DNA of 64,000 nt, taken from IMG/VR virus record IMGVR_UViG_3300005617_000028, positions 65,140 to 129,139 of that record; one strand, given 5' to 3'. Position 1 is the first letter of the stretch. Each line of letters begins with the position of its first letter. A program made the position numbers and the translations under genes. The stretch is from a virus. This document shows positions 7,005-29,418 of the stretch, piece by piece. The notes under the pieces were generated by a model that saw only the letters and a list, made by a program, of their open reading frames with translations, ran no database searches and had not been told where the DNA came from.

Positions 7005-7072
7005 ACAGCGGTTGTGCTGCACCGACCGCGCGTGTCATGGTCATGGGGACAGCGACTATGGAGGTTCGAGTC

Positions 7073-7402
7073 ATGATCAGTCAACGCACGCCGCACCCCT
7101 CAGAACGCAACCCCTGGCCGGGGCACAACGTACCGGTACCCGTCCGCATCGACGGCAAACGGGTCCTCTCCGCCATCAAGCTGCTGCCCGCGCCGCGCCA
7201 GCCCGCCCACCAGTGGATGGTGGTCACCGAATTCCCCGGGGCCCTGTTCAACCTGCTGCGCGTGACCTACCGCGACGACCTGTACCAGGTTGCCGACAGC
7301 GTCGGTCCGATCGAGTCCTACTCGCAGGCGGTTGCCTGGATGATCCGGGTGGCCCAGTCCCACGGAACACCCGCGCAGCTCACCGATTCGACCACGTCAT
7401 GA
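7073..7402 (+). CDS. Hypothetical protein
   Basis: Preceded by GACT-atggaggttcg-AGTC-ATG start element. Confidence 0.7.
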   Translation: MISQRTPHPSERNPWPGHNVPVPVRIDGKRVLSAIKLLPAPRQPAHQWMVVTEFPGALFNLLRVTYRDDLYQVADSVGPIESYSQAVAWMIRVAQSHGTPAQLTDSTTS

Positions 7403-7800
7403 CCGCCACCCTGGACAGCATCGTGGTGCAACGCGGCGGCGTGTCCTACCAGGTCGACATCGTCCCCGATTCCTTCACCCACCCCCGCGACTTCGACGAC
7501 CACCGCTACACCCCGGCCGATGAAGCCAACTACGGGGACGGCTGGCAGTTCGTGTCGGTGTCGGTCACCCCGGTCGGACATCACCTGTGCGCCGACTTCG
7601 ATGGAATCGAATACGGGCAGAGCCTGCGCTGGCAGGTGAGTACCGCAGACCTGATCGAGCGCGCCGACGCCGAAAACTGGTTCGAGGAGGCCCATGCCAA
7701 GCTGATCACCGCTACCACCAAGAACCGGTCACGGTGGCTACAGGGCATACGCCGTCTTGTGGCGGCTGGCCGTAGGGCGCTCGTCAGTATCGTCCGCTGA
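7399..7800 (+). CDS. Hypothetical protein
   Basis: ATGA-coupled ORF. Confidence 0.65.
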   Translation: MTATLDSIVVQRGGVSYQVDIVPDSFTHPRDFDDHRYTPADEANYGDGWQFVSVSVTPVGHHLCADFDGIEYGQSLRWQVSTADLIERADAENWFEEAHAKLITATTKNRSRWLQGIRRLVAAGRRALVSIVR

Positions 7801-7840
7801 GCGTGGCCACTGTCGACTGTGGACAACGGGGGAGACGACC

Positions 7841-8047
7841 ATGGCAACCAAGATCACCGTCACCGACCGGCCGTGTCCGGACGCTGAACAGCACACCGTG
7901 GGCCCGCCCGGATACCTCGCATTCTTCGAGTGGGCCGCGCTCATGAACAAGACGCACCGCCAGTGCAAATGCTCCGGCTGCGGCTGCTGGATGATCTGGC
8001 GGCCACGGCGTGCCACCACGGAGCCACAAGACATCAATGTAAGCTGA
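7841..8047 (+). CDS. Small Zn-finger-like protein
   Basis: GGGGGAG RBS; C...HT..P.GY..W..M.KTH.Q..C..C. Confidence 0.65.
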   Translation: MATKITVTDRPCPDAEQHTVGPPGYLAFFEWAALMNKTHRQCKCSGCGCWMIWRPRRATTEPQDINVS

Positions 8048-8078
8048 CCTAGCCGCAACGACTACGGGAGTTTGAGTC

Positions 8079-8432
8079 ATGACCGATTCACTGTTTCAGG
8101 AACCTGCCGCCGCCGGACCGCCCGAGCCCCCGCGTCTGCGGGGCCGTATGAAACGCCGTTTCGGGAAGGGCAACGTCTACACCGAGGTGGAGATGGCCGG
8201 TCGTCACAAGGCCCTGGAGAAGCAGGGGCGCCACTGCGACGCCAACTCCGGCCGCTGTCTGCAGGCCGCCACCAGGGCCCTGGAGGTGGTGGAGCTGGAC
8301 AGCGTCACGGGTGAGCCACACGCCGAACGCGGCGAGCAGCGACGGGTACAGGTGTGCAGTCAGCACGCACCGATCTACACGCGCAGCTCCCGCTTCCGGG
8401 TGATCTCGGAGGAGCGCATCTCCGCGTCCTGA
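8079..8432 (+). CDS. Hypothetical Zn-binding protein
   Basis: GACT-N11-AGTC-ATG start element; C...C...CxxH. Confidence 0.7.
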   Translation: MTDSLFQEPAAAGPPEPPRLRGRMKRRFGKGNVYTEVEMAGRHKALEKQGRHCDANSGRCLQAATRALEVVELDSVTGEPHAERGEQRRVQVCSQHAPIYTRSSRFRVISEERISAS

Positions 8433-8435
8433 AAA

Positions 8436-8477
8436 GTCGGCGGCCCCTCCTGGTAGACACGGGGTGGGGCCGCCGAC
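8436..8477 (+). terminator. Hairpin
   Basis: GTCGGCGGCCCC / GGGGCCGCCGAC perfect 12-bp stem. Confidence 0.65.
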
Positions 8478-8494
8478 CTGTAGGGAGAACCGTC

Positions 8495-9052
8495 GTGACC
8501 GCAAACAACCTGTCCGTGTCCCAGGTGACGCTGGACGCCGTACAAGCCACCGCTGTGGTGGACCGTCACGTGCATCAGATTGACATCGGCGCCCTGGCCA
8601 TCCCTGAACAGATTCAGGCTCTCCGCGCGGCGTTCACCAGGGTGAGCGACGCGGGTACGGCCGGTGGTAGCAGCCAACAGTACCTACAGGCACTGCTGAC
8701 TCTCGCTACGCGGGCCCTGCTGGCCGCCGAAGCCGGGGAGAACAGCGCAGCCACGGTAGACACGGAAGCCGCCGCACCGACTGAGATACCGCCGGACCCG
8801 TATGTCGTGAGCCACCCCGTCTTTGTCCGCAAGCTCGTCGACGCCGCGCTCCAACTGTTGCTGGCCGAACGCGCGTGCCTTTCTTCCCACCCTGATCCAC
8901 AGACCGAACGTGCCACGGTGTCTCTGTGCCTGACCGCGCTGGATCTGGTCGCGGAGGTGGACCAGCTTCCCCGCGCCGCCCAGCCTGTCGGCTGGCGCCG
9001 GTCACACGCCCGCCCGCCAGTAGATTTACGTACACCGAGGGACTTGACTTAA
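8495..9052 (+). CDS. Hypothetical protein
   Basis: GGGAG RBS then GTG. Confidence 0.6.
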   Translation: MTANNLSVSQVTLDAVQATAVVDRHVHQIDIGALAIPEQIQALRAAFTRVSDAGTAGGSSQQYLQALLTLATRALLAAEAGENSAATVDTEAAAPTEIPPDPYVVSHPVFVRKLVDAALQLLLAERACLSSHPDPQTERATVSLCLTALDLVAEVDQLPRAAQPVGWRRSHARPPVDLRTPRDLT

Positions 9053-9111
9053 GTATGGTCGCCGCGTTACCATTCCCTGGCCAGGTTGGCTGAGCCGTGG
9101 AGGGAGTTCCA

Positions 9112-9564
9112 ATGACCGAGGTCCGCGTTCTTGGCCAGCAGGCAAGGAAGCTCATCGCTGAGTGCGGTGCCGAGCTGGACGACAATTCCCAGCACGCGCA
9201 GCAGCTTGTGGGGTGTGTCATCGCGCCGAGTGGAATCCGGTTCAAAGCCTCGGGCTGCCACACCATCGCCATGAACTACCTGACCGATCGTGCCGCCGGC
9301 TGGCGTGCGCTGCTGGCGGACCTGCGCGCGGGCGTGGAGCCATGCGACACACCAGAATGTGAAATGTGCGACGGCGTTGACCCGGGTAGCGCTGCGCTGC
9401 CGGTGGCCGGGCCGGCGAGCCCCACCCGCCGCCGCTACCGCCACGCGCGGTACCACCGGTCCCGTCCGGACACCACAGCCGTGTGTCCGGACCCAGAGAA
9501 CTGCCCGCACCCCGGCGCGGTATCCGGCGACTCTTGCGAATGCTGCGGCGCGATCATCCCTTGA
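9112..9564 (+). CDS. Cys-rich hypothetical protein
   Basis: GGAGGGAG RBS; stop codon lies inside the next -35 box. Confidence 0.6.
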   Translation: MTEVRVLGQQARKLIAECGAELDDNSQHAQQLVGCVIAPSGIRFKASGCHTIAMNYLTDRAAGWRALLADLRAGVEPCDTPECEMCDGVDPGSAALPVAGPASPTRRRYRHARYHRSRPDTTAVCPDPENCPHPGAVSGDSCECCGAIIP

Positions 9565-9642
9565 CTTCCGCCACCCGGACAAGGTAGGTTCTGTCTACCA
9601 GATAGACACCACCGCAACGCAAGGCTTAGGAAAGGTCGGGCC

Positions 9643-9888
9643 ATGAGCGCAACACCCACCGCGGACGCTCCCAGCGAGGAGCAGACCTGGACCTTCTTCG
9701 GGTTCTGGGAGAACGACCGCATCGTCGTACAGTTCGAGACGCCCGGCGAGGTGGACGACGACCGCGAAGACGATGGGACACACGAGCAGGGTCTGTGGGC
9801 CGCATCCGGCTCTGGCCCGACCATGGAAGAGGCACAGCGGCTCGTCGTTGCGGAGTACGAAGACGCCGAAGACGAGGACCTGTCATGA
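9643..9888 (+). CDS. Acidic hypothetical protein
   Basis: Directly follows a family A leader. Confidence 0.8.
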   Translation: MSATPTADAPSEEQTWTFFGFWENDRIVVQFETPGEVDDDREDDGTHEQGLWAASGSGPTMEEAQRLVVAEYEDAEDEDLS

Positions 9889-10136
9889 GCGCCGCTGTCA
9901 TGCATCCTTACCCAGACACGCTCGCGAAAGCACGAAAGGTAGGAGCGAGTAAGGCCAATGATGTTGAGCTGCTGGCGCTCTACTGCGCCGATGTTCTACA
10001 GATCATTGTCGGGGCGGTGTCACCTCGACTTGTGTTTGAGGCCGCCCAGCAAAGAGGCATGACCGCCCTCGATCTCGCAGCGCTCACACTCTCTGACCCC
10101 GCCGCCGTGTCCGAACTGCAATGGGACCTGTCATGA
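9885..10136 (+). CDS. Hypothetical protein flanked by 21-bp direct repeats
   Basis: ATGA-coupled at both ends. Confidence 0.7.
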   Translation: MSAAVMHPYPDTLAKARKVGASKANDVELLALYCADVLQIIVGAVSPRLVFEAAQQRGMTALDLAALTLSDPAAVSELQWDLS

Positions 10137-10300
10137 GCGCCGCTAGCGACCTGCGCCGGGCCGAGGCCGTCCTGACTGAGCTGCTGGCCACCTACGCCAA
10201 GCACGGCTGCACCCCGGCCGAGACGGAGGACATGGAATCCGTTGTCAAGGCGCGCCGTAACGTCGAATTCCTACGGGGCCGGAAGGGGGGCCGAAGGTGA
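10133..10300 (+). CDS. 55-aa hypothetical protein
   Basis: Hand-translated MSAASDLRRAEAVL... Confidence 0.55.
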   Translation: MSAASDLRRAEAVLTELLATYAKHGCTPAETEDMESVVKARRNVEFLRGRKGGRR

Positions 10301-10412
10301 CCGCGAATGTACGCCGGGCTGCCGGGAACTCTTGACTTCCGTCACCGGGACAAGGTAGGTTCTGTCTACGAGATAGACACCACCGAAATACCAGGCTAGG
10401 AAAGGTCGAGCC

Positions 10413-10805
10413 ATGAACGGAAACAGAGAACAGGTCATGACCACCGGTGCCGAATACGCTAGCTTGCCCGCAGACGAGCGCGAGGCTTTGCTGATGCGGC
10501 AACACGGCGAAGCGAGAACCGCCAGCCAGCGGTACGCCGCGCTGCTCGTGCTGGAGGCCGGGGTAAAGGCCCGCGAATTTCTGCCCTCGGTTACGAAGCT
10601 GGCTTTCCGGTTGGGTGATGGAGGGTCAGTGGTCACGCTGCTCACCGCCTACGGGGTCGGCGGGGAGGTTCTGTGGGACCTCGATGTGGATGAAGAGTGG
10701 CCCGACGAAAGCCAGGTCGCCGACAACCTGGAGGCGGCCTATGACGCGGATGTCAGGTGCTTTAAGCGTGACGGTGACCTGCATTGCATCACCGTCGACT
10801 GGTGA
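10413..10805 (+). CDS. Hypothetical protein
   Basis: Follows a family A leader. Confidence 0.8.
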   Translation: MNGNREQVMTTGAEYASLPADEREALLMRQHGEARTASQRYAALLVLEAGVKAREFLPSVTKLAFRLGDGGSVVTLLTAYGVGGEVLWDLDVDEEWPDESQVADNLEAAYDADVRCFKRDGDLHCITVDW

Positions 10806-10858
10806 CACCATCCCGTCACTCGTGTACGCAGTTTCTGACTAAGGAGTTTCGAGTCATC

Positions 10859-11584
10859 ATGAGTAATGTCAACCCGCCCAGCTACACCTTTGAGGAGCCG
10901 ATCGGCACGATCCGTGTCGACGTGCTCACCGCCGAGGAGAACGACAGTCGTCGGCTCGCGCCGGAGCTTCAACCGCGTATCCGTGTGGACGCGACGCTGA
11001 CCGTTCGCGGTGTGGCTTACCGCGTCTTCGCCAAATACCGGTGGGAGCGGACCGGTCACGCGGTCTATTCCCACGGCAATCCGACCGGCGCCCATACTTA
11101 TTGGCAGGAGATCGACAGTCAGTACACCCGTGTCGACTCCGGTAAGCGGCCTGACTACAGCACACCTACTTACCGCACTCTGTACGACACAGTGTGGCGC
11201 GTGCTCGGCCGGCTGGTCGCCGACCATCCCGAGTGGCAGCATGCCTCTCTGGTGGCCCGGCTGCGGAAGTTGGCCGCTGAGTCTGAGCAGACCGCTGCAT
11301 CGGCCCGGTACCAGTGGATGGAAGCCACCACCAGGGCGGCCGCGCTGCGCGGCGAGCTGGCCACCGCCCTACTCGACCACAGTGCCGGGGTCAGCGGTGT
11401 GTGTCAGCACTGCGACCAACCAGTACGGCTGTCGGTCGACCCGTCGGTTCCCTGGGTGCACACGCAGACTGGTAACGGTTACTGCGACGTGTACGTACCC
11501 GTAGATGCGGTCATGTTGGCCGGCACGTCCGGCCGTACCGAGGCCAGCCCGTTGGCACAGAGCATTCAGGGAGAGCAGTCATGA
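10859..11584 (+). CDS. Hypothetical protein with C-terminal CxxC...H...C module
   Basis: TGACT-aaggagtttcg-AGTCA start element. Confidence 0.75.
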   Translation: MSNVNPPSYTFEEPIGTIRVDVLTAEENDSRRLAPELQPRIRVDATLTVRGVAYRVFAKYRWERTGHAVYSHGNPTGAHTYWQEIDSQYTRVDSGKRPDYSTPTYRTLYDTVWRVLGRLVADHPEWQHASLVARLRKLAAESEQTAASARYQWMEATTRAAALRGELATALLDHSAGVSGVCQHCDQPVRLSVDPSVPWVHTQTGNGYCDVYVPVDAVMLAGTSGRTEASPLAQSIQGEQS

Positions 11585-11724
11585 CAGTCCGAGGCGTGTT
11601 CCTGGTAGGGCTGACCGTTGCGGTCGGCGGGCTGGGCCTGGTCTTCTTCCCGCCCCTGGTCGTGGTCCTCATCGTGGCGCTCTGCCTGAGCCGGTTACGC
11701 CGGACCGCCAAGACTGGCAGTTGA
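11581..11724 (+). CDS. 47-aa membrane peptide
   Basis: Hand-translated, hydrophobic; stop inside the next TTGACA. Confidence 0.6.
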   Translation: MTVRGVFLVGLTVAVGGLGLVFFPPLVVVLIVALCLSRLRRTAKTGS

Positions 11725-11814
11725 CAGGGCACCTGACCAGCGACTATGTTCTGTCTACGAGCTAGACACCCCGCCGAAGGCTAAGCACCTTCCAGCCACA
11801 TAAGGACGGACATC

Positions 11815-12069
11815 ATGGTAGTCATCACTGCCCGCACCGATCTCGCGCCTCTCACCGGCGTACGGGTGCGCATCCAGAACACAGTGCGCGGTGAGCGGTT
11901 CACGCGCTACGGCGTGTTCACGGAGTTGTGGCACAGCGACGGCGCCCGGACCGGCATGGGCCCCCACGCTGGTGGCTACCTCACCGAGGAGCCGCACGGT
12001 TCCTGCCGGGGCGGCAATACGGCGTTCTGCCTGGACTACAACGACTCCACTGTGGAGGTTGCGCGATGA
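11815..12069 (+). CDS. Hypothetical protein
   Basis: Follows a family A leader; AAGGA RBS. Confidence 0.75.
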   Translation: MVVITARTDLAPLTGVRVRIQNTVRGERFTRYGVFTELWHSDGARTGMGPHAGGYLTEEPHGSCRGGNTAFCLDYNDSTVEVAR

Positions 12070-12545
12070 GCGCGGTCGGGAGTCGGGTTCGTCTGCTCGC
12101 CTGGGGCTCGGACGAGGCACTGCGGGAAGACAGCGTGCCGCACGGCACCGAAGGCACCGTGGTCGCGGTAGAAGACGACGTCAACATGATTCACGTCCGG
12201 TGGGACACCGGCCTAGAGCTGGGGCTGATCCCCGAACACGACCGGTGGGAAGAGGTGGCACCTTCGGTGACCGAGGTCGACCGCATCAGCAAACGCGCTC
12301 ACGTGGCCGCGCTCCGGGCCGGGAACTTCTGCTACATCTACTCCGGCTCTGACCGTACCGAGGTCGCCGAGCGCGCCCGTACGGGGGAAGTGGGGATGAC
12401 CGCTGCCAACCTCGATACCGAGGTGACCTGGCTACAGCCGCAACACTTCCACGAGACCTACCAGCGGCTCTGTGACGCGGTCGGCTACCGCAACGTATAC
12501 CTGATGCCCAGTACCGAGGGGAACGGCGCGGAGGCTGGTCCGTGA
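12066..12545 (+). CDS. DUF4314-like domain protein
   Basis: GSRVRL...VPHGTEGTVVAVEDD...IHVRWDTG..LGLIP..DRW. Confidence 0.7.
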   Translation: MSAVGSRVRLLAWGSDEALREDSVPHGTEGTVVAVEDDVNMIHVRWDTGLELGLIPEHDRWEEVAPSVTEVDRISKRAHVAALRAGNFCYIYSGSDRTEVAERARTGEVGMTAANLDTEVTWLQPQHFHETYQRLCDAVGYRNVYLMPSTEGNGAEAGP

Positions 12546-12757
12546 GCCTGTTTCCTACCCCACAGGACTACGCAGCCAACCCGCCCGGTAGCTGGACGAT
12601 ACAACGGCTGACACGCCGTCTGTACGCGCTCTGCGCGAGGGACGGCCGGGTGCTGGCCACCTACCCGCGCCGTGGTGACGCGGTCCGTGACGCAGACAGG
12701 ATCAGAGCACAGTACGACCAGGAGAGACGCGCGACCACCGTAGACACTCGCTCTTGA
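12542..12757 (+). CDS. Hypothetical protein
   Basis: GTGA-coupled; stop inside the next TTGACT. Confidence 0.6.
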   Translation: MSLFPTPQDYAANPPGSWTIQRLTRRLYALCARDGRVLATYPRRGDAVRDADRIRAQYDQERRATTVDTRS

Positions 12758-13167
12758 CTTAGGTCTACCGCCCGGTGTACCTTACGTATGTAGGCAAACG
12801 AGCGACACCAGGAGGCGCCACCATGAACGATCAGGTACCCGCCAAGGAACCGACGGTAACCGTAAGTCTTCCGCGCAGTTACAGACTAGTCATCGAGTGT
12901 GGTGCGCCGGGCGAGAACATCGATGGTGCCGTGCGGCAGGCTACCGCCTGGTTGTGCGACAGCATCGACGAGAGTGGTGAGCATGACTTGACCGTAACGG
13001 TGACCGATGAAACGGGCGAGCTTGTCGCTCAGCACCAGTATCAAGCTCATTAGGGACGCGCGTGTCCACCGTAGACACTCGCTCTTGACTTAGGTCTACT
13101 GTTTGGTGTATCTTACGTATGTAAGCAAGCGAGCGACACCAGGAGGCGCCACCATGAACGACCAGGT
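12726..13167 (+). repeat. Two ~110-bp near-identical promoter-leader-start repeats
   Basis: ~12726-12836 vs ~13055-13167, both ending GGAGGCGCCACC-ATGAACGAYCAGGT. Confidence 0.9.
12823..13053 (+). CDS. Hypothetical protein (starts MNDQV)
   Basis: AGGAGG RBS in repeated leader. Confidence 0.8.
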   Translation: MNDQVPAKEPTVTVSLPRSYRLVIECGAPGENIDGAVRQATAWLCDSIDESGEHDLTVTVTDETGELVAQHQYQAH

Positions 13168-13426
13168 TTCCGTTACCGAGGTGGTCGACCTGTCCGACGA
13201 GCTGACCGGCGAGGCCGAACACATCCGCGATAGCGGCGTATCCACCGAGGCCGAGGTCCACCGGTTCTGGCACCGCATCAACGGGCCGGCCGAGGAGGTC
13301 GGGTGTCCGTGGGATGCTTGTCACAATCCGCGGGATGACTACGACGGGCCGGCCTGGTGTGGCCAGTGGATCGACTCGGCCGACTACTGCTCCGGCGACC
13401 ACGGCGCCGAACAACAACCGTTCTGA
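13154..13426 (+). CDS. Acidic Cys-containing hypothetical protein (starts MNDQV)
   Basis: AGGAGG RBS in repeated leader. Confidence 0.8.
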   Translation: MNDQVSVTEVVDLSDELTGEAEHIRDSGVSTEAEVHRFWHRINGPAEEVGCPWDACHNPRDDYDGPAWCGQWIDSADYCSGDHGAEQQPF

Positions 13427-13462
13427 GTCCGCACAACCGTTGAGGCTAGGGAGAATCAAGCC

Positions 13463-14086
13463 ATGAAACCGCTCACCACACTTGCCGCCGAGGTTGACCA
13501 GATCCGCGAAACGCTGTTTGGTATCGCCCGCGCGCACCGCTCGGTGATCCCACCGGCCGAGGTCGTCGCGACCGAGGCGGCAACGCTGGCCCAGCAACTG
13601 GGCGAGGTCATCTCCGCGCTCCTGGCGCCTGCGGGCCTGCTCTCCTCTGTGGAGTGGACAGCGGACCTGGCAGACGCGGAGGTCGCCACGCTCGACGACC
13701 AGAGCCGAAGGCTACTCGCCAACGCGCTACGTGAGGCGTGGAATGACAAGCAGGACTGGGCAGTCCTGGACAAGGTACGGGGCCGCATCGCTGGCAAATA
13801 CCCGTTCGCGGATGCGCGCGTGGTTCTGTTCACCGCCTCGGAGTGGGACAACGGGTGGTATCTAGATGACACTGCCGCCGTCTTCTTCGCGGACGGTACC
13901 TCGGATTCCAATGTGGATTTCGGGTGCACCACGGAGCTAACCGAGGGACACGGCAGCGTCGGGCCTGATTCAGCGCTGGCCGTCAACCTCCGCACGGGTG
14001 AGATGTTTTTCGACGATTACCGCGCCAACGTCACCGAGAAAATGTGTGAGTGGTTGGGACTTGCGGAGCTGCCGCCGAGCGCGTAA
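13463..14086 (+). CDS. Hypothetical protein
   Basis: GGCT-N11-AGCC-ATG start element. Confidence 0.8.
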   Translation: MKPLTTLAAEVDQIRETLFGIARAHRSVIPPAEVVATEAATLAQQLGEVISALLAPAGLLSSVEWTADLADAEVATLDDQSRRLLANALREAWNDKQDWAVLDKVRGRIAGKYPFADARVVLFTASEWDNGWYLDDTAAVFFADGTSDSNVDFGCTTELTEGHGSVGPDSALAVNLRTGEMFFDDYRANVTEKMCEWLGLAELPPSA

Positions 14087-14138
14087 GGTCCTGTCTATCA
14101 GCTAGACACCGCACACCGAGGCTAAGGACAATCAAGCC

Positions 14139-14522
14139 ATGACAAGCATCATCGACAGTGAGCCGACCCATATCCGGCGTGACCGGTCCATCGAGTTTCA
14201 GTGGCCGGTACGACCGGGCAAGTGTGACAGTCTCGACGGCCAGGGAACCGTGCACGCCGTTCTGTACGTGTCACACGATGGCGACGTCAAACGGTTCCGG
14301 GCCAGCACGCACCCGGCCACCATCTACCCGAACGGCGTAACCAGCATGGAGATCTCCCTGCTCGCGCAGGGCTTCCGGTTCAGTGAGTCCACGCCGCGCT
14401 ACAGCGTGAAAGCGTTGGAAGCGTTCGCGCTGCGGGCCGTCGCCGCGCTGCGTACCGCGTACGCCGCTGGCGACACTAAGGTACTGGCGCTGTTTGACAC
14501 GGAGCCGGCAACGGCAGAATAG
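14139..14522 (+). CDS. Hypothetical protein
   Basis: Follows a family A leader. Confidence 0.8.
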   Translation: MTSIIDSEPTHIRRDRSIEFQWPVRPGKCDSLDGQGTVHAVLYVSHDGDVKRFRASTHPATIYPNGVTSMEISLLAQGFRFSESTPRYSVKALEAFALRAVAALRTAYAAGDTKVLALFDTEPATAE

Positions 14523-14608
14523 ACAAGGGCTTGACACGCAGCCCCCGACCACATAGATTCTGTCTATCAGCTAGACACCGCACCACCGAGGCTAAGGAAA
14601 ATCAAGCC

Positions 14609-14923: not shown

Positions 14924-15111
14924 GTGACACACGAGTCAAGTTGGCCGCGCTGCGCAAGGCGAGCGAGGGACCGGACCCGTACGCCGAGGCGGATGCGGAC
15001 CACACGCCGGTCCGCACGGTGCCGGGTGAGGATGGTTTCGAGTGTGGCCGGTGCGGGCTGGCCATCACGGCCGACGCGCGGAGGCACGGACACATCGCGG
15101 ACGGGAAGTGA
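14920..15111 (+). CDS. Small Zn-ribbon protein
   Basis: ATGA-coupled; H...CGRC...H. Confidence 0.6.
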   Translation: MSDTRVKLAALRKASEGPDPYAEADADHTPVRTVPGEDGFECGRCGLAITADARRHGHIADGK

Positions 15112-15116
15112 GCACC

Positions 15117-15347
15117 ATGAGCGGAGCCACCACACAACGGTGCGTCAACGACGATCCGTCCTGCCGGGGCCCGGTGGAGCTGCGCACGGCGCTGTCAGGT
15201 ACGGGTACGCCGTTCCCGCGCTGCGAGCTGCACTGGCAGAAACGGCTAGACCTGGAAGAGGGGTTGCGCGAGCGGTATCCGGTGCACCCGCCAGCGGGCT
15301 GGTCGCCGGCCGACATTGGCGAGAGCTGGAGTGAGGAGGACTACTGA
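15117..15347 (+). CDS. Small actinophage-type protein
   Basis: C....C.G.VE.R..LSGTG..FPRC..HW...P....P...GE.W pattern recalled from mycobacteriophage genes. Confidence 0.7.
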   Translation: MSGATTQRCVNDDPSCRGPVELRTALSGTGTPFPRCELHWQKRLDLEEGLRERYPVHPPAGWSPADIGESWSEEDY

Positions 15348-15658
15348 TGTTCTACGTGACGATTGTTCGTGACAGTAGGCAGGTTGGGGTACTGGCCGGG
15401 CCTTTCAACTCGGCCGAAGACGCGCAGCCGTGGGTGGAGCGCACCCGCGTCGCAGCGATCGCGGTAGACCGGTGGCCACACTTCGACGCTTTCGGCGTGT
15501 CGCACATCCCCGGACGGGGCGCGCCCGGCCGTCTCAACGCTCGCCTGGGGCTGCTGCCGGCCGGCTCGGTCGGGTACCGGGTCTGGCGACAGGGACCGGT
15601 CACGCACGCTGCCTCACATGAGGCCGCCGGTACCGTGCGTTCGGTACCGTCCGTCTGA
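15347..15658 (+). CDS. Hypothetical protein
   Basis: TGATG-coupled; FYVT..R....LAGPF. Confidence 0.7.
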   Translation: MFYVTIVRDSRQVGVLAGPFNSAEDAQPWVERTRVAAIAVDRWPHFDAFGVSHIPGRGAPGRLNARLGLLPAGSVGYRVWRQGPVTHAASHEAAGTVRSVPSV

Positions 15659-15876
15659 TGGATGACGAGGAGGCCGGCCGGCTCGCGCGGGAAGACGGCT
15701 ACGTGACCTGTGACGAGTGTGGGCACATGATGGAGCGCCACGACACCACGGGCTGTCAGACGGCGATTGACGGCGGTTGCCCGTGCCAGGTACGGGTTAC
15801 GCAGACGGAGATCCGCGCGATACGTGTCCGGTACGGACTGCCGGCCCGGTTCGACCGCAACCTCTTGATGCCGTAA
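15658..15876 (+). CDS. Small Cys/His protein
   Basis: TGATG-coupled; CDECGH...H...C...C.C. Confidence 0.65.
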   Translation: MDDEEAGRLAREDGYVTCDECGHMMERHDTTGCQTAIDGGCPCQVRVTQTEIRAIRVRYGLPARFDRNLLMP

Positions 15877-15990
15877 GCCACCTGTAGCGCAGACAGGCTA
15901 CAGCGGCGCGCGACAGCGCTTGACGTAGGTACACCGACGGGTGTACGTTCACCACATCAGCAAAGCACGGCTACGGAAAGTTGGAGCCAC

Positions 15991-16557
15991 ATGCGCAAGA
16001 CATGGAATCACGTACCGCCGGAGTCCACCCAGCCCTGTCCCGATGACAATATGAGTATGTGTGTGATCGGACAGGTCGGAGTCTGGCACGGTGACCGGCG
16101 GAAGCTCATTCACACGGAATCGGCTATGGAGATCGCCGCATGGTGGCAGGGTCCGCGCTCGCCCGGACTCACCGCGTTTGCCAGTACCGGAACCATCACG
16201 CCGGACCTGCTACTGGAAATCGCCGCCGCGCGTCGCACGGTGACCGGTGCCGACGGTGACGACCTGGACGCGCTGGCGGCCTACGTGCGCGCCGTGGTGA
16301 TCCTGACAGGCGACGACGCTGCCTACCACGGCGCAGAGGAGACGTGCGACCATTGCACCGATTCCGGTTGCCTCTACATGGCCAGCGCGATCACGTTCAC
16401 AGTCCAGGTGGAGGTAACGCGCGGTTCCGGCCCGTGGCAGGTTACGTCGGCAGTAGCCAGCGCTCTTGGTGAGGCTATCGCCAACGCGGGCGCCGGAGTT
16501 TTCTCCGTGCTGGGTTCTGAGTACTGGACCACGGGCGTACGGTCCCGCCGTGCCTGA
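15991..16557 (+). CDS. Hypothetical protein
   Basis: Follows a family B promoter and start element. Confidence 0.75.
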   Translation: MRKTWNHVPPESTQPCPDDNMSMCVIGQVGVWHGDRRKLIHTESAMEIAAWWQGPRSPGLTAFASTGTITPDLLLEIAAARRTVTGADGDDLDALAAYVRAVVILTGDDAAYHGAEETCDHCTDSGCLYMASAITFTVQVEVTRGSGPWQVTSAVASALGEAIANAGAGVFSVLGSEYWTTGVRSRRA

Positions 16558-16693
16558 TGAGGTTTGGATCAACGAGTCGCGCGCCGAGATGTGCGAGTGC
16601 GGTTGTGACACTGACCTACATGACGTAGTGGAAGTCGATGTTTTCTGTCCCAACTGCGGTGTGTGGTGCGCGGATGTGAGGGACATCGCTTGA
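16550..16693 (+). CDS. 47-aa Zn-ribbon protein
   Basis: CECGC...CPNC; stop inside the next TTGACA. Confidence 0.55.
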   Translation: MPDEVWINESRAEMCECGCDTDLHDVVEVDVFCPNCGVWCADVRDIA

Positions 16694-16760
16694 CACTGTG
16701 AGTACGACAGGCTAGCTTGTGTCTAGCAGGTAGACAGAACGGCTACGGAAAGTAGGAGCC

Positions 16761-17132
16761 ATGGAAATTCTCGCTTACCACAACGCACGGTCGAACGACG
16801 ATCGCGATTTCGCCTTTCTCACACACAAGACGGGTGAGCCGGTAGTCCTGGTCTTCCGCACCGAAATCCCGGATCAGGATGATCTCGCGGCGTGCGAGTG
16901 GGCTTTCCACCTGCTCAACGTTGGCCATGAGGCTTTCGGTACGCCCGATCCGGCAGCCATCGAGTACCGCGCACGCGGTAACAGGTCACTGTCGGTTGGC
17001 GACGTCGTTTCGGTTGACGGTCGGTTCTACGCGGTTGCGTCGTATAGCTGGGCGCCGATCGACAAACCGCCGATGGTCGAAACCACTGCGCCGGGCACTA
17101 CGCCGATCGCGGATACGGCTCTTGACGGGTGA
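16761..17132 (+). CDS. YodL-like domain protein
   Basis: F..LN......RSLSVGDVV.VDGRFYAV motif. Confidence 0.7.
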   Translation: MEILAYHNARSNDDRDFAFLTHKTGEPVVLVFRTEIPDQDDLAACEWAFHLLNVGHEAFGTPDPAAIEYRARGNRSLSVGDVVSVDGRFYAVASYSWAPIDKPPMVETTAPGTTPIADTALDG

Positions 17133-17197
17133 TGGGCAAGCAGGCTACTGTCTAGCTAGTTGACAGGCACAACCCAACGGCTAGGGAAGTAGGAGCC

Positions 17198-17533
17198 ATG
17201 GAAACTCGCAGCTACGCGGACGGTACATCGATCACAGTCAAGATGCCGTGGTCGGTGTACGTGAGCGCACGGGTACTCTGTTCGGACGGCAAGGTGCGCG
17301 CCACGGCACGGATTGCATTGACGGCCGACACCTTCTTTTCGGTGCCGTGCGCGGTTAAGGTTTCCGGCCGGACGGTTTCCGGTTACCTCACAGTGGAGAC
17401 GCGCGAGGGAATGTCTACCGAAACCACGGATGATCCGGCCGTCGTTAAGTTCATCGCGTGCGGCAAGAACGCCGACGCGCTGCCGACCGGTGCCTACGTC
17501 GTACCCGCCACGGTTTCATCGGCGGTTTCCTGA
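17198..17533 (+). CDS. Hypothetical protein
   Basis: Follows a family A leader; DGKVR...ADTFFSVP..V...G..VSGY. Confidence 0.8.
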   Translation: METRSYADGTSITVKMPWSVYVSARVLCSDGKVRATARIALTADTFFSVPCAVKVSGRTVSGYLTVETREGMSTETTDDPAVVKFIACGKNADALPTGAYVVPATVSSAVS

Positions 17534-17766
17534 TGGGCGCCACACGGCAGCGTTTCACGCCGGCCGAGCGCTCGGCCCTGCTGATCGGCGCGGACATCGA
17601 ATGGCGCCACGGTTCTCGGTGGTACGCCGGAACGGTTTCCGGCCCGATTACCACGGATGAAATCGGTGCGCAGTACGTACCGGTTACGCACACAATCAAG
17701 AGCCCAACGGTTTCACCCGGAGGGATGCGCGGTTACCCGAAACAGATTCGCGTGCTGGCGGTTTGA
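17533..17766 (+). CDS. Hypothetical protein
   Basis: TGATG-coupled. Confidence 0.65.
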   Translation: MGATRQRFTPAERSALLIGADIEWRHGSRWYAGTVSGPITTDEIGAQYVPVTHTIKSPTVSPGGMRGYPKQIRVLAV

Positions 17767-17848
17767 CACGGGTTTCAGCTCTTGACTTAGGTTCACTACG
17801 GTGTGTACGTTCATGCCACACAACCAAACGGCTACGGAAGTAGGAGCC

Positions 17849-18289
17849 ATGTCAAGTACCCGTATCGGCGTAGCGTACGGCCCGATTCACAACGGTCGAC
17901 AGAACACGTACGCGGTTTACCGCGTCAACGTGGACGCGACGGTAACCGTTGAACACACCGGTCACCGTGAGGGTACGACCATGGTCGGGCTGCCGTTGGG
18001 CGGGCCCGGGTGGCGGCCGCCGACACGGTTCGATAGCGACATCGATCACTTCGTTGAGATCACGTTTCTCCGCCACTGTGGCGAGATGCCATCGCACATC
18101 GGCTCGCGCGCCATGGCTGGCATCGATCAGGCAACCGACAGCGACGGCGTACGGGTGCGTGAGTGCACCGGCCGGTACGGCACGCTAGACGGGCCGCACA
18201 GTACGTACGGTGCCACGGTCCGATGGGATGATGGCTCGCGGTTCTACGTGGACTCTGCGTGCCTGTGGCGGGTCCCATCGGCCCTGTAG
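17849..18289 (+). CDS. Hypothetical protein
   Basis: Follows a family B leader. Confidence 0.75.
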   Translation: MSSTRIGVAYGPIHNGRQNTYAVYRVNVDATVTVEHTGHREGTTMVGLPLGGPGWRPPTRFDSDIDHFVEITFLRHCGEMPSHIGSRAMAGIDQATDSDGVRVRECTGRYGTLDGPHSTYGATVRWDDGSRFYVDSACLWRVPSAL

Positions 18290-18301
18290 CGTGGACACGC
18301 T

Positions 18302-18332
18302 AGGCCCGGTCGGTACGCCCGGCCGGGCCTTT
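18302..18332 (+). terminator. Intrinsic terminator-like hairpin
   Basis: AGGCCCGGTCGG-N5-CCGGCCGGGCCT-TT. Confidence 0.7.
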
Positions 18333-18338
18333 GCCGTC

Positions 18339-18583
18339 GCTGCCCGCTTGCACGCTGCCGCTCGCCTGTCCGCTTGCACGCTGCCGCTTGCACGCTGCCG
18401 CTCGCCTGTCCGCTCGCACGCTGCCGCTCGCCTGTCCGCTCGCACGCTGCCGCTCGCACGCTGCCGCTCGCACGCGCACGCACGCCTGTCCGCTCGCACG
18501 CCTGTCCGCTCGCACGCGCACGCACGCTGCCGCTCGCACGCTGCCGCTCGCCTGTCCGCTCGCACGCTGCCGGCTCGCCTCGC
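18339..18583. repeat. Mosaic tandem repeat, ~15 copies of CCGCT(C/T)GC at mostly 12/14-bp spacing
   Basis: Units GCTGCCGCTCGCAC and CTGTCCGCTCGC read directly. Confidence 0.9.
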
Positions 18584-18674
18584 TAGCTAGAAATTATTGC
18601 TACTTGACTCGCCAGAGACGCACAGGCTACTGTCTACCTAGTTGACACCACGGCTACGGAACATGGGAGCTATC

Positions 18675-19697
18675 ATGACTGCCGAAATGACTCGATTCGC
18701 CCGATCGCTGGACAGTACGGAATTTCAGCCGTTGAACGGCAGGCGTGACCCGTTCGATCTACTGTCCAGTGTGAGTGCCAACGTTGGCGACGCACAGACC
18801 ATGATGGAAACGGCCGGCGTACTCGGTTGGTCGCCGGAAATGATTCCGCTATCCGGAATGGATAGCGTCGGCAACATGTACGAAACTCCGGCCAGCAATT
18901 ACGGAATCGTCGTACCGACCTATCCGACAGGTCCGGCCTATTTCGGTCAGGCTCACAAGGATTTCAAATTCATCCGTCCGGAAGCGTTGCATCCGCTGAT
19001 CGACGCGATTGTCGCGCACGGCAATCCGCTCACGGGGATTATTCCGGGCCCGGTTACCCGATTCGTCTTCGATTCTAAACTGATCGACATCACGCCGTAT
19101 AGCAAGGCAGCGGCTGAGAACATCGGCGAAATTATCCGTGTGCGCTGGCAACTGGACCTCGGCAACACTGGCAAGAATTCCCTTGTCATTGGCCAGAAGG
19201 GTATGCGTCTAATCTGCGCGAATGGGGTGAGTACGGCTTCGTCAATGGGTAGCGTGTCGATCTCGCATAGCAATCTCGCGCCGGGCAAGATCGCTGCCAC
19301 GGTCGATCGGATCATGAGTCAGGGAAACATCGGACTCGATAAGTGGATTACGGACGCTCGCCAGACGATCAACGCTCGCTTGACACTGGACGGAGCACTC
19401 GCACTGTGGGCGGATCTGTTCTCATGGACTGACGACAAGGACGGGCGCGCGCTCACCACACAAGACTCGCAGCGTGCGACGCTTACCCAGCTCTGGCGGT
19501 CCCCTACCCAGACGATCACGTACCCGGAAACAGCGTGGGCGTTTTTCGGCGCGACAACCGAATACCTCGACCATGAGGCGACCGTCCGATTTGGTGGCGA
19601 CACTCGTGAGCGTGCGCTCGCACGTCGGGTAGTCGAGTCCGCTCCGGCCGTCGAGTCCGTCAAGAATCGCGCATGGGAGATGGCGCTAGCCGTCTAG
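18675..19697 (+). CDS. DUF932-like protein
   Basis: GMRLICANG, ISH, TAWAFFGATTEYLDH, K.RAWE.AL motifs. Confidence 0.8.
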   Translation: MTAEMTRFARSLDSTEFQPLNGRRDPFDLLSSVSANVGDAQTMMETAGVLGWSPEMIPLSGMDSVGNMYETPASNYGIVVPTYPTGPAYFGQAHKDFKFIRPEALHPLIDAIVAHGNPLTGIIPGPVTRFVFDSKLIDITPYSKAAAENIGEIIRVRWQLDLGNTGKNSLVIGQKGMRLICANGVSTASSMGSVSISHSNLAPGKIAATVDRIMSQGNIGLDKWITDARQTINARLTLDGALALWADLFSWTDDKDGRALTTQDSQRATLTQLWRSPTQTITYPETAWAFFGATTEYLDHEATVRFGGDTRERALARRVVESAPAVESVKNRAWEMALAV

Positions 19698-19712
19698 GCA
19701 ACGCGCACGGGT

Positions 19713-19750
19713 GAGGCGAGGGGACAGTCCCCTCGCCTCGCTCTTGTTTG
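19713..19750 (+). terminator. Intrinsic terminator
   Basis: GAGGCGAGGGGA-CAG-TCCCCTCGCCTC followed by T-rich tract. Confidence 0.85.
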
Positions 19751-19855
19751 TCATACGTACGTTGTTCGTTTGACTTAGGTACAGCACGGATGCTAGTTTG
19801 ACATCTCAACCAAACGGCCACGGATAATCGGGCCCAGAGCAAAGGATCAGCCATC

Positions 19856-20188
19856 ATGGATGTCAACGCTACGTGGTCAGAAATTCTCGCCATCCTGTCG
19901 CAGCCGATGACATCGGAAAACGCAGACCGGCTCGAAGAGCTTGCCTACGCGCTTGACGGTTGGCTTGCGCGTGGCGGTTACGCTCCCGGTACTTGGCCGG
20001 TAGGCACACTCGGGTACTACCGCCACGCATGCGCTTACGGTGAGTCGGTAGGCATGTCCGATGGCGAGTGCGTCACGTACGCCGCATGGTTCGTGGCGGA
20101 ATGGGCAACCGACATCGACACAGACACGGATCACACTCGCGAGGTAGTGCGCTTCCGTCGGATCATGAGCGTCGCCACGGTCGTCTAG
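19856..20188 (+). CDS. Two-module hypothetical protein
   Basis: MD.NAT...ALDGWL.RGG..P..W N-module; C-module shared with 20615-21016. Confidence 0.75.
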   Translation: MDVNATWSEILAILSQPMTSENADRLEELAYALDGWLARGGYAPGTWPVGTLGYYRHACAYGESVGMSDGECVTYAAWFVAEWATDIDTDTDHTREVVRFRRIMSVATVV

Positions 20189-20192
20189 CCCG

Positions 20193-20243
20193 TACGCCGC
20201 AACGCGGAACCGCGCCACCCAAACCATGGGTGGCGCGGTTTCT
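20193..20243 (+). terminator. Terminator, duplicated at ~21022-21070
   Basis: TACGCCGCAACGCGG-AACCGCGCCACCCA-N5-TGGGTGGCGCGGTT-TCT. Confidence 0.85.
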
Positions 20244-20305
20244 GTATCTGCCCTACATCTGTAGTCTGTTTGACTTAGGTACCCTCGCCACGGTACCGTG
20301 CGCCT

Positions 20306-20515
20306 ATGAGTCGTGATACCGCAGAGAACCGCGCCGCGTACGTCCGTGGTTGGGCTGCGTCCGTTCGCCACGCAGAAGGCGCCTTAGAACGCGCCGATGA
20401 TCGTGGCGAAATCGGCGCATGGTACGACGGATATCTCGACTACGCAGCCGATCGGCCGAAGTGGCACACGCTGCGTTGCCTAAGCGATAACCACGACACG
20501 TGCGACACGCCTTAA
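20306..20515 (+). CDS. Hypothetical protein, probably leaderless
   Basis: ATG 6 nt after the -10 of a family B promoter. Confidence 0.7.
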   Translation: MSRDTAENRAAYVRGWAASVRHAEGALERADDRGEIGAWYDGYLDYAADRPKWHTLRCLSDNHDTCDTP

Positions 20516-20614
20516 ATCTGTACCTCGTTTGACTTAGGTACTCTCGCCACGGTACGTTGACATCTCAACCAAACGGCCACGCATAATCGGCCACGCGCTA
20601 CGGAGGTTCCACCC

Positions 20615-21016
20615 ATGGTCAGCTACTCCACAGATGAGATGATCAACATTCTGCGTTCCGGCCACGGCTACTCGCCAGACGACGTTACGTCGGTCCTAGA
20701 TCAACTCATCTCGGCCGGACTGGACACTGTGACCGAGAATGAGGCTAGCGGCTACACGTTCACTGTCGATGAATTGCGTACCGCGTTGCTGCAGCTCATC
20801 GCACGGGTACCTATGGCGCTGCAGTCGTGGCTTTGGCGCCACGCATACTACTACGCCGAGGTAGTTCATCACATGTACGCCGATGAGTGTGAGGCGTACG
20901 CGGAGTGGTTCACGCTGCGATACGCCGACCCGTTGACACTGACCACGGCTATCTGTCACTCACGCGAGGTTCCGGTATGGCGCGCCACGGTACCGACCAT
21001 GGTCACGCTCGGCTAG
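20615..21016 (+). CDS. Two-module hypothetical protein
   Basis: GGAGG RBS after a family B promoter. Confidence 0.75.
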   Translation: MVSYSTDEMINILRSGHGYSPDDVTSVLDQLISAGLDTVTENEASGYTFTVDELRTALLQLIARVPMALQSWLWRHAYYYAEVVHHMYADECEAYAEWFTLRYADPLTLTTAICHSREVPVWRATVPTMVTLG

Positions 21017-21021
21017 CCGCT

Positions 21022-21070
21022 TACGCCGCAACGCGGAACGCGCCACCCAACCATGGGTGGCGCGGTTTTC
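21022..21070 (+). terminator. Terminator, copy 2
   Basis: CGCGCCACCCA-N4-TGGGTGGCGCG-GTTTT. Confidence 0.85.
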
Positions 21071-22110
21071 GTATGTCCGGCCGACGTGACCACAGAAACA
21101 GCGCTTTCCGCCGACTTCCCGATTCTCCCAGAAAAGCCAAGAGGCCCGTAGAGCCGATCGCTACCCGTTGTCTGTCGGGATGGTAAGCCCATCCCTGCCT
21201 ACCCTGCCCGATCGCTGCCCTACGGACACCACAGAGGCTCTGGCGACCCATCCTCCGGACCATGGGTCCCCAACCGATGATGTGACCTCTGTACCGTCCG
21301 GCTACTCGTGGCCAACTCGGCCAATCATCAGGGAACCGCGTGCGCTCACGTACCCGTACCGCGTAGCCGGCTAACCGTCGGGACCGCTTACGTACCCGTG
21401 CGACTGTGAACCGCTAGCCGGTACCCGTACGGTCAGCACACGTGGCAGTCACCTTCAGTTGGGGCTTACTGTCAGAATCGCTGGCCACGCTCATTCGCAC
21501 GCTGATCGATCCGAGCATGTCCGGCTAGTCCGAGCCTGACTGTATCGCGTCCCAGAGTCCATTTCTGCCAGATCGACGCTACCGGCTCAGAACGGCTACA
21601 GGGTCCACGGGTACCAACTTGGCATGCTGGACCGCGTATGGGCCTCTGTGGCTGTCGCAAGCCCTACCGTGGCGCGGTTCGTACCCTGCCAATCGGGAGC
21701 GTGGCTTGCCATTCTGAACATGGGTGACCGATCGGTCGGGTACGTGACCTAGCGTCCGATATTGTCGGCAATCCCTTACGCCGCAACGGATGTAGCCTCG
21801 CCACGACGCTTGCGCTCCATAAAGGACGTTGAGTGGATCATGCGAAAACGCTAGTTGATCTTTCCTACCCGATCCAGCACCAGACAAGATCAACCCATGC
21901 CCGAAAGCCCGATCACGCTGATCCGTGGGCACCTATGATCGGGCAGGCTTTCGGGCAGGGTCGGAACAGGACCTATCGGCTGCTAGAGCGACGCTTGCCA
22001 TGGGTGCCCAGAGGTACGCTTTTGGGCATGGCTATCTGTGCGCAATTCCTGTAGCGTCACGGGTAGCGCGCACCCATCGGAACGCGCACCGGTCACGGAA
22101 GTAGGGACCC

Positions 22111-22260
22111 ATGGACGAACAATGCGAGTACGGGGACTGTGTCTCAGAGGACGGCTACGGCACGTGCGAGGGATGCGGCCACCCGATGTCGGTTGATCAC
22201 TCGCCTGTGAGCGTGCGCAGCACGTGCGAAGACGCTCCCTGTTGCGGATGTTGCTCATGA
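22111..22260 (+). CDS. 49-aa Cys-rich protein ending CEDAPCCGCCS
   Basis: Hand-translated; preceded by GGTC-acggaagtagg-GACC start element. Confidence 0.7.
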   Translation: MDEQCEYGDCVSEDGYGTCEGCGHPMSVDHSPVSVRSTCEDAPCCGCCS

Positions 22261-22451
22261 GCGCGACACGGCACAGTTGCGGCGGGCCCGTGTTCGGTCG
22301 CCTCACCGATGGTTGCCCGCGTTGCGACGAACTGAGGGATGGCGCCACGCCCATCAAGGTCACGTGGTACGACGCGCCACGCTACAGCGGCGGGCCCGTG
22401 CACCGGTGCTCGGGTACCTGCCCTAGGACGTGCACCGGTGGTGACTGGTGA
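22257..22451 (+). CDS. Small Cys/His protein
   Basis: ATGA-coupled; HSCGGPVFGR...CPRCDEL..G...H.C...C...CT.GDW. Confidence 0.7.
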   Translation: MSATRHSCGGPVFGRLTDGCPRCDELRDGATPIKVTWYDAPRYSGGPVHRCSGTCPRTCTGGDW

Positions 22452-22470
22452 GCCGCTAGCGCGTACGCGC

Positions 22471-22500
22471 ACGGGCCCGAGGAGCGCTCCTCGGGCCCGT
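22471..22500. terminator. 30-bp perfect palindrome
   Basis: ACGGGCCCGAGGAGCGCTCCTCGGGCCCGT. Confidence 0.75.
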
Positions 22501-29352: not shown

Positions 29353-29372
29353 CAAGACACACCTGCGGGTGC

Positions 29373-29413: not shown

Positions 29414-29418
29414 TCATC

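Follow-up and report, generated by a model that had tools for sequence, protein, structure and literature searches.

A small-gene array with repeated leaders of predicted promoter, putative operator and start-associated motif in a high-G+C phage genome: a probable early region

Why should a run of small, mostly unrelated genes be divided into units by leaders that closely resemble one another? The question is raised by IMG/VR virus record IMGVR_UViG_3300005617_000028, a single contig of 129,139 bp with 67% G+C and a completeness rating of 96%. The window analysed here is the whole of its second half (genome 65140–129139; 64,000 nucleotides), and coordinates below are those of the window unless the genome is named. 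Between 7073 and 22451 the window carries 36 small genes (g1–g36; 34–340 aa), all on the + strand, which were called by hand with every frame verified open and which fall into units of one to five genes. We consider it probable that at window 7.0–22.5 kb the host RNA polymerase transcribes an early, hyperplastic region from two classes of promoter, one of them with a palindrome as operator, and we read the phage as an uncultured actinophage from soil.

An all-against-all blastp comparison of the 36 proteins (E < 1e-5) gave just two related pairs, g32/g34 (30% identity, E = 8e-7) and g24/g35 (N-termini only, E = 2e-6), the other listed pairs having E ≥ 0.007; the original prediction of about 35 co-oriented, mostly unrelated genes in units of one to five describes the array well. 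At E ≤ 0.01, Pfam matched three of the 36 proteins (DUF4314, a sub-threshold DUF6894 and DUF932) and left 33 without a match, and PHROGs matched eight, seven of them to entries of unknown function. The proposal that these are host-takeover or anti-defence genes found no indication in either database, neither Pfam nor PHROGs giving such an annotation for any of the 36. The DUF932 protein is g31 (18675–19697, + strand), relatives of which stand behind other leaders elsewhere.

Over the whole 129,139-bp genome the pattern TTGAC-N17–20-TANNNT is matched 17 times on the + strand and never on the − strand, compared with 1.71 ± 1.27 matches (maximum 7) in 200 dinucleotide shuffles. All but one of the matches lie in 11.5 kb of the array (9044–20558), where 500 shuffles of that region gave 0.22 (maximum 2). 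A narrower pattern, with N16–18 after TTGAC, gave just two matches because the true spacing after TTGAC is 18–19. As the match at 17763 overlaps promoter P17782, there are 15 distinct promoters, and a degenerate one at 14061 (TTGCGG-N17-TAAGGT) makes 16 leaders in all; hexamer spacers of 17–18 nt and a TANNNT −10 box are found in 16 of 16. The two families that had been proposed, one with a 17-bp palindrome (class A below) and the other with a TAGGT motif (class B), were both recovered, with eight leaders each. The sole consensus promoter outside the array, at genome 40776–40805 (window −24363), is class-B-like (TTGACGTACGTAC..TATGTT); it lies upstream of a short open reading frame (ORF) near a MazF-like gene.

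Class A is defined by TGTCTA-N5-TAGACA, present as six perfect and two one-mismatch copies, all eight in promoter leaders on the + strand. The perfect copies belong to P9561 (TTGACT-N18-TAGGTT; leader 9561–9608, palindrome 9592–9608), P10332 (10332–10379, palindrome 10363–10379), P11721 (TTGACA-N18-TATGTT; 11721–11768, palindrome 11752–11768), the degenerate-promoter leader before g19 (14061–14108, palindrome 14092–14108), P14531 (TTGACA-N17-TAGATT; 14531–14577, palindrome 14561–14577), which is predicted to serve the five-gene unit g20–g24, and P16690 (16690–16736, palindrome 16720–16736). In the two leaders that we call A′, P17122 (17122–17165) and P18604 (18604–18647, before g31), the palindrome has one mismatch (17149–17165 and 18631–18647, respectively). 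With up to two mismatches there are ten sites in the window compared with 0.48 expected, and the whole genome holds six, nine and 12 sites at zero, up to one and up to two mismatches. Near-palindromes at genome 56314/56337 and at window 29373/29397 (1–2 mismatches) were set aside, having no convincing promoter context.

The palindrome is phased to the promoter. It begins 1–2 nt past the −10 box in six leaders and overlaps the −10 box (TACTGT) in the two A′ leaders, so that the dyad would span the expected start site, with its left arm at or before +1. The six perfect copies agree at each of the 12 half-site positions, compared with a mean column identity of 60% across the leaders. A position over the start site is the usual placement of repressor operators and is awkward for a hairpin in the RNA of the same promoter. 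Half-sites of 6 bp, ~11 bp apart from centre to centre, fit an operator for a dimeric helix–turn–helix-type protein. We infer that a dimeric DNA-binding repressor uses the palindrome as its operator.

The same dyad could act in RNA, as a 6–7 bp hairpin in read-through transcripts that would serve as a processing site, a stabilizer or an attenuator. Most units have no terminator, so read-through transcripts should hold the full palindrome; the copy at 14092 sits behind a degenerate promoter only; and a truly covarying RNA hairpin does occur in the leaders of Microbacterium phage Magritte, to which we return below. We nevertheless regard this explanation as improbable, since the arms here are invariant with no compensatory changes, the palindrome keeps a fixed distance to the −10 box rather than to the gene start, and its left arm falls at the likely start or 5′ of it, so that the promoter's own transcript would not fully carry the palindrome. 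The half-site geometry also speaks for a protein-bound site.

In class B an asymmetric TTAGGT element stands beside the −35 box, giving TTGAC[TG]TA[GA]GT in eight leaders, again all on the + strand: the B-like P9044 (TTGACT-N18-TACCAT; 9044–9073) before g6, P12754 (12754–12783) before g16, P13085 (13085–13114) before g17, P15920 (TTGACG-TAGGTACACC-N4-GGTGTAC; 15920–15949), P17782 (17782–17811), P19770 (in a terminator–promoter composite, 19706–19799), P20270 (in a second such composite, 20211–20299) and P20529 (20529–20558), the last of which is identical to P19770 over the 20 nt past the −10 box. The slightly wider pattern TTGAC[TG]TA[GAC]GT occurs nine times in the genome, always on the + strand, eight times in the array and once in the promoter at genome 40776. 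A spacer dyad is clear in two of the eight promoters, P15920 (a perfect 7-bp dyad, 7/7) and P20270 (6/6), which rules out a dyad as a general property of the class. The conserved element suggests a second control that is independent of the palindrome.

Near-consensus boxes with spacers of 17–18 nt support the view, already part of the original prediction, that the leaders are expression signals, and one of them has a leaderless geometry. The ATG of g33 follows the −10 box of P20270 by 6 nt (20270–20308), so that the mRNA is predicted to be leaderless, a type of transcript often met with in Actinobacteria. Four leaders are packed so closely against the preceding gene that the TGA which ends that gene forms part of the next TTGAC: those after g6 (9562–9564), g12 (11722–11724), g15 (12755–12757) and g26 (16691–16693).

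A third layer lies at the gene starts. The strict motif GGCTA-N9–11-AGCC-N0–3-ATG occurs eight times in the genome, all eight in the array, on the + strand and 0–2 nt from an ATG (starts at 10394, 13444, 14120, 14590, 15969, 16741, 17179 and 17830; span 10394–17851). When looser variants are counted, a 4-bp bracket surrounds a purine-rich loop at 14 gene starts: GGCT/AGCC at nine, wobble variants at two, GGCC/GGCC at two and GGTC/GACC at one; three of the variants are compensated, a hint that the arms pair. The bracket is what stands of the claim that the Shine–Dalgarno sequence is enclosed in a stem; that wording is too strong, because the folding energies of the 5′ untranslated regions (5′-UTRs) are ordinary (z from −0.99 to +2.1), and these rule out an unusually stable hairpin that sequesters the Shine–Dalgarno sequence. 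The GGCTA..AGCC-ATG element around the Shine–Dalgarno sequence probably tunes translation.

How did so many unrelated genes come to have such similar leaders? In a self-comparison of the array, repeats are confined to leaders, terminators and one tandem array. Neighbouring leaders are often each other's closest relatives, and the five pairs named beforehand were all confirmed: 9561/10332, 12754/13085, 14061/14531 (named by its palindromes, 14092/14561), 17122/18604 and 19770/20529. The promoter cores cluster by family and the last 30 nt before the ATG do not: one pre-ATG module is common, at 73–93% identity, to P15920 and P17782 (both B), P16690 (A), and P17122 and P18604 (both A′), and that of P17782 is 93% identical to that of P17122. 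Promoter family and pre-ATG module are incongruent, and the layers are modular.

The clearest footprint is a duplicated block of 102 bp on the + strand. Its first copy (12735–12836) takes in the 3′ end of the g15 coding sequence, P12754, the 5′-UTR and the first codons of g16; its second (13066–13167) takes in non-coding DNA, P13085, the 5′-UTR and the first codons of the unrelated g17. A perfect tract of 34 nt starts 19 nt 5′ of the −35 box, where it lies within coding sequence in the first copy and outside it in the second, and a perfect tract of 31 nt enters the first codons of the two unrelated genes (14 nt in). Identity that runs into flanking sequence and into unrelated genes argues for duplication or recombination and not for convergence. 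Terminators take part as well. A terminator hairpin (19709–19743, + strand) comes first in the P19770 composite, and the terminator in the P20270 composite, after g32, has a homologue after g34 (21039–21064, + strand) that is ~85% identical, flanks included; around g32 and g34 both the promoter flanks and the terminator flanks keep 82–85% identity, compared with 30% between the two proteins. Hairpins stand directly 5′ of P19770 and P20270 only, and another, seen on reading the sequence, is ~270 nt 5′ of P18604. The block and the mosaic leaders show that leaders have been duplicated locally or have recombined with one another, as had been proposed.

These footprints also bear on the more far-reaching idea that the leaders are mainly homology arms, in a recombinase-independent, integron-like array that captures and shuffles host-takeover and anti-defence cassettes through RecA and Mre11–Rad50, in the manner of the promoter early stem-loop (PeSL) motifs of T4-like phages. 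The leaders are 33–114 bp long and 74–94% identical, flank unrelated ORFan genes and are mosaic across families; the 12735/13066 pair has its perfect 34- and 31-nt tracts; and g32 and g34 have composite flanks of terminator plus promoter. The phage encodes RecA (2665–4107) and a pair of neighbouring proteins, an SbcC-like ATPase (34735–35691) and an Mre11-like phosphoesterase (35700–36710). There is, moreover, complete turnover of array content relative to Magritte and a reversed order of the g25-like and DUF932 genes in another phage contig (see below), and mini-circles and leader-bounded indels have been documented for the PeSLs (PMC2839356), as have repeat-bounded indels for Cluster O mycobacteriophages (PMC4351075). 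We still think the idea unlikely. In most cases a leader follows directly on the stop codon of the gene before it and no terminator intervenes, so that cassettes are not transcriptionally insulated as in the PeSL case. The RuvC that had been listed beside RecA and Mre11–Rad50 in the recombination system is not there, PF02075 having no match in the whole genome. Likeness to an integron also fails: each unit has its own promoter, no attC/attI-like structure is seen, the self-comparison giving no attC-type repeats, and the only tyrosine integrase lies ~37 kb from the array start (genome 34004–35284). No anti-defence annotation was obtained from Pfam or PHROGs, the contigs of all four sequencing runs that hold parts of the array have the same arrangement, and ten loci with relatives of g31 have only the coding sequence in common, behind unrelated leaders. 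Regulatory constraint alone would explain the conservation of the leaders.

Two readings that would leave the leaders no regulatory role, as copies of a small non-autonomous mobile element of the MITE or MPME type or as relics of recent tandem duplication, are very improbable. Repeats of ~35–115 bp dispersed over 11.5 kb, with neighbours most alike, could be read in this way, but every copy has one orientation and one register to the gene start, neither terminal inverted repeats nor target duplications were seen in the repeats or alignments, and the motif is missing elsewhere in the genome bar one copy. Conservation falls precisely on the −35 box, −10 box, dyad and Shine–Dalgarno sequence, whereas the spacers vary.

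The reading of the array as an early region with joint control can now be given in full. About 15 near-consensus principal-sigma promoters (TTGAC[A/T/G]-N17/18-TANNNT) would each drive one to five small ORFan genes, and a dimeric repressor on the class A palindromes would silence these promoters jointly, either at the switch from early to middle expression or in a lysogen, the latter being considered because a tyrosine integrase is encoded. Class B would be under separate control through the TTAGGT element. Later genes would probably be transcribed with the two sigma70-like proteins of the phage, both encoded outside the array (genome 16030–16833 and 59582–60316); it is the near-confinement of consensus promoters to the array, together with these two proteins, that leads us to read it as the early region. 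The leaders would have spread by local duplication and recombined with one another, leaving as a by-product identity tracts of 30 bp and more that offer sites for the loss, duplication or exchange of cassettes.

Several observations weigh against this reading. The expected repressor is not evident in the array: among 44 proteins of the array and its surroundings, a permissive Pfam search (E ≤ 1) turned up no credible DNA-binding domain, and a search of the ESM Atlas with g20 returned only sub-threshold leads to RHH/CopG/ParG proteins from a poor model (pLDDT 0.44). Candidates for the repressor lie elsewhere: a ribbon–helix–helix (RHH) protein (27835–28140), an HTH_31 protein of 416 aa (genome 51998–53248) and a zinc-finger protein. 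Genes g1–g5 (7073–9052) and g35–g36 do not have these leaders. The spacer dyad in two of eight class B promoters makes the status of that element as an operator weak; the folding energies of the 5′-UTRs are ordinary; and read-through transcripts would hold the whole palindrome as an RNA hairpin, for which a role at the RNA level is possible. None of the sequencing runs listed as holding the stretch is of RNA, so that the activity of the promoters, its timing and the sites of initiation are predictions.

Pieces of the stretch were found as short or broken contigs in four rhizosphere metagenome runs from four studies. Among the pieces listed, all of those aligning over more than 100 nt do so without differences from the record. 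Two joints listed were rejected as evidence of rearrangement, their sides (21–22 nt) being below the reliability bar and their ends not falling in leaders. The comparison is one of contigs, in which circles or rare deletions cannot show. In one run (X1) the mean contig depth is 5.9 at 12737–13303 compared with 11–12 in the flanking bins, and the unitigs break off at 12764 and resume at 13132. The dip could be an effect of the duplicated leader on the assembly graph, or could reflect a sub-population without the g16 cassette.

No close relative of the array turned up among phage records, IMG/VR, GTDB genomes or metagenome contigs. A megablast search of 50,697 phage records with the array as query returned nothing, the leader pattern gave zero matches in IMG/VR and GTDB genomes, and queries with the DUF932 protein or g11 in the same two collections gave no close relative. 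RecA and a 374-aa protein encoded next to it (5038–6162) found relatives in IMG/VR at 23–49% identity only, and in the 10 kb downstream of the query gene at these loci there was no comparable leader family. The 374-aa protein has a faint DUF932 match of its own (E = 0.077) and is kept at 36–49% identity in Magritte (gene 76) and at five IMG/VR loci on phage contigs of 47–142 kb; with g31, the phage may have two distant DUF932-like genes.

The nearest named phage is Magritte (133 kb), with a portal protein 50% identical. Matches at 34–38% identity were obtained for six of the 23 flanking proteins searched (RecA, the 374-aa protein, the SbcC-like and Mre11-like proteins, a nuclease and the clamp). 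Of the 36 array proteins one matched, and that weakly. Such turnover of content beside a flanking core that still matches is why we read the array as a hyperplastic region. Magritte has a small-gene array of its own (OR553905.1 60000–105000, locus 27200–44500) with about a dozen repeated leaders. These consist of a promoter-like box, TTG(T/A)C..GTTAGCGCGTGACGTG..(C/T)AA(T/A)AAT, a hairpin with a covarying stem and a conserved CAAGAGA/CAACAGA loop, and then a conserved Shine–Dalgarno sequence, CCCACGAAGGGAATCAC, before the ATG; the core motif occurs 11 times forward and once in reverse, with none in the control, and Rho-independent terminators are often found upstream.

The ten metagenome loci mentioned above encode DUF932 proteins 68–82% identical to g31. 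The homology is limited to the coding sequence, and the leader of the present phage is absent from all ten, where the leaders are unrelated, which indicates that this gene was not exchanged via shared leaders. Leaders thus belong to the resident phage, and genes move without them, which argues against acquisition between lineages by leader homology. The longest of these contigs (L005) comes from a different high-G+C phage. It has a perfect 18-bp palindrome, GATTAACGGCCGTTAATC, in six copies (2023, 2994, 9125, 11380, 12883 and 13144), most of them in short intergenic regions, and a second palindromic element in three copies, one directly past a TTGACT box; its g25-like and DUF932 genes are in the opposite relative order to those of the present phage. 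Magritte and L005 have the same leader grammar in different sequences, and different leader sequences in related phages would fit co-evolution of leader and regulator.

From these comparisons a broader picture can be drawn, although we put it forward only tentatively and think it more doubtful than the reading of the array itself. High-G+C actinophages of ~130 kb would form a lineage with a PeSL-like system, in which promoter, operator and start modules recombine independently, each phage has a leader 'dialect' matched to its own repressor, ORFans are domesticated behind resident leaders, and leader-to-leader recombination duplicates, deletes and reorders cassettes. That leader-mediated shuffling is in itself a significant process seems to us about as doubtful or slightly more so. 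If the picture were true, one set of repeats would couple regulation and gene flux. The array also provides a statistically clean map of predicted host-sigma promoters for an uncultured soil phage of 129 kb, and leads to the prediction of an early regulon of two classes and of a defined 17-bp operator, by which the repressor and ~36 ORFan proteins become directly testable.

Around the array the window encodes an amidase/LysM lysin (715–1806), a serine resolvase (28388–28978), a sliding clamp (38280–39476), a clamp loader (40834–41961), a Mu-type portal protein (54896–56806) and a major capsid protein (58599–59624). The first half of the genome also encodes DNA polymerase A, DnaB, Lsr2 and a hybrid histidine kinase–receiver protein, and has toxin–antitoxin pairs in Phd/YoeB and MazF-like modules; the loci listed there for the sigma, integrase, toxin–antitoxin, Lsr2 and kinase set are genome 16030–16833, 59582–60316, 34004–35284 and 54607–56178. 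Scans for tRNAs and with Rfam found nothing, the sole sub-threshold Rfam match, to a SAH riboswitch (E = 0.91), being dismissed.

Three non-coding stretches stand apart from the leaders. Between the end of g30 and P18604 lies a degenerate G+C-rich tandem repeat of ~250 bp (18332–18580; periods 26, 40 and 66), within which the Logan unitigs of run X1 break. From 21017 to 22110, between the g34 terminator and g35, 1.1 kb of ~61% G+C has no convincing ORF and no Rfam match; the CTTACGCCGCAACG terminator flank has a third partial copy there, at ~21775. Just 3′ of the array, 22560–22900 is non-coding and richer in A+T, with three perfect copies of CAAGATCCACTA (22669, 22693 and 22801) and related CAAGATC pieces; at up to two mismatches this sequence has eight sites in the window compared with 1.5 expected. 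The copies resemble iterons, and the region may be a replication origin or a partition site.

How do the leaders compare with systems already described? According to the original prediction, the three-layer arrangement was not known from a described phage. This can be kept for the combination, as we found no description of the layers fused into one modular leader with a promoter-locked operator, but not for the layers, each of which has a precedent in the accounts of PeSLs, of Cluster O palindromes or of start-associated sequences (SAS). PeSLs are composite terminator/promoter motifs of ~100 bp in hyperplastic regions of T4-like phages, where they recombine into mini-circles (Arbiol et al. 2010, PMC2839356; Comeau et al. 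2014, PMC4122927). The present array is similar in its repeated intergenic composites of ~100 bp with a host-consensus early promoter (15 here, plus one weak) and a Shine–Dalgarno sequence, in its hyperplastic ORFan content and in the recombination genes encoded by the phage; at 19.7–21.1 kb it even has true terminator-plus-promoter composites. It differs in that sequence and lineage are unrelated, the host phage here being a high-G+C actinophage, that most of its leaders have no upstream stem-loop or terminator and that, unlike PeSLs as described, half of them have a putative palindromic operator over the start site. Recombination at the leaders, as circles and as indels between close relatives, has been demonstrated for PeSLs and is conjectural here.

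A further comparison is with the Cluster O mycobacteriophages, in which a 17-bp dyad repeat is present more than 30 times beside 8–9 SigA-like promoters, and for which indels by recombination between repeats have been inferred (Cresawn et al. 2015, PMC4351075). Here too an actinophage has a 17-bp dyad with invariant arms and strong predictions of principal-sigma promoters. The sequence, however, is another one and its geometry is different, with 6-bp arms and a 5-bp centre here and 7-bp arms and a 3-bp centre there. The Cluster O sites, as described, are scattered over the genome, about a third of them inside genes, and are not locked to promoters, whereas eight of eight are fused to promoters here.

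The conserved inverted repeats of phiC31 form the operator array of a temperate actinophage. In the present phage a multi-copy dyad with invariant arms overlaps the predicted promoter and start region in eight cases out of eight, as would be expected of such an array. The stoperators of Cluster A are 13 bp long, asymmetric and bound by a monomer, and act on elongation (PMC9283540, PMC6550527). Common to all of these are many copies of one repressor site, putative in the present phage, over early or non-structural genes, an arrangement that makes for coordinated silencing; unlike the stoperators, the site here is symmetric and lies at the start site, and a temperate lifestyle is uncertain.

The start motif finds its counterpart in the SAS and ESAS of Cluster K, start-linked motifs of unknown role with a 13-bp consensus (Pope et al. 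2011, PMC3203893). Both are asymmetric motifs that contain a Shine–Dalgarno sequence beside the ATG, in one orientation, in the non-structural region only and before unrelated genes. The motif here is GGCTA[A/C]GGA..AGCC instead of that consensus and, unlike the SAS as described, it lies 0–3 nt from the ATG, is combined with promoters and has a 4-bp bracket with three compensated variants. Taken with the PeSL precedent, the array would carry over to high-G+C actinophages a concept drawn from T4-like phages, that of regulatory leaders repeated throughout a hyperplastic region.

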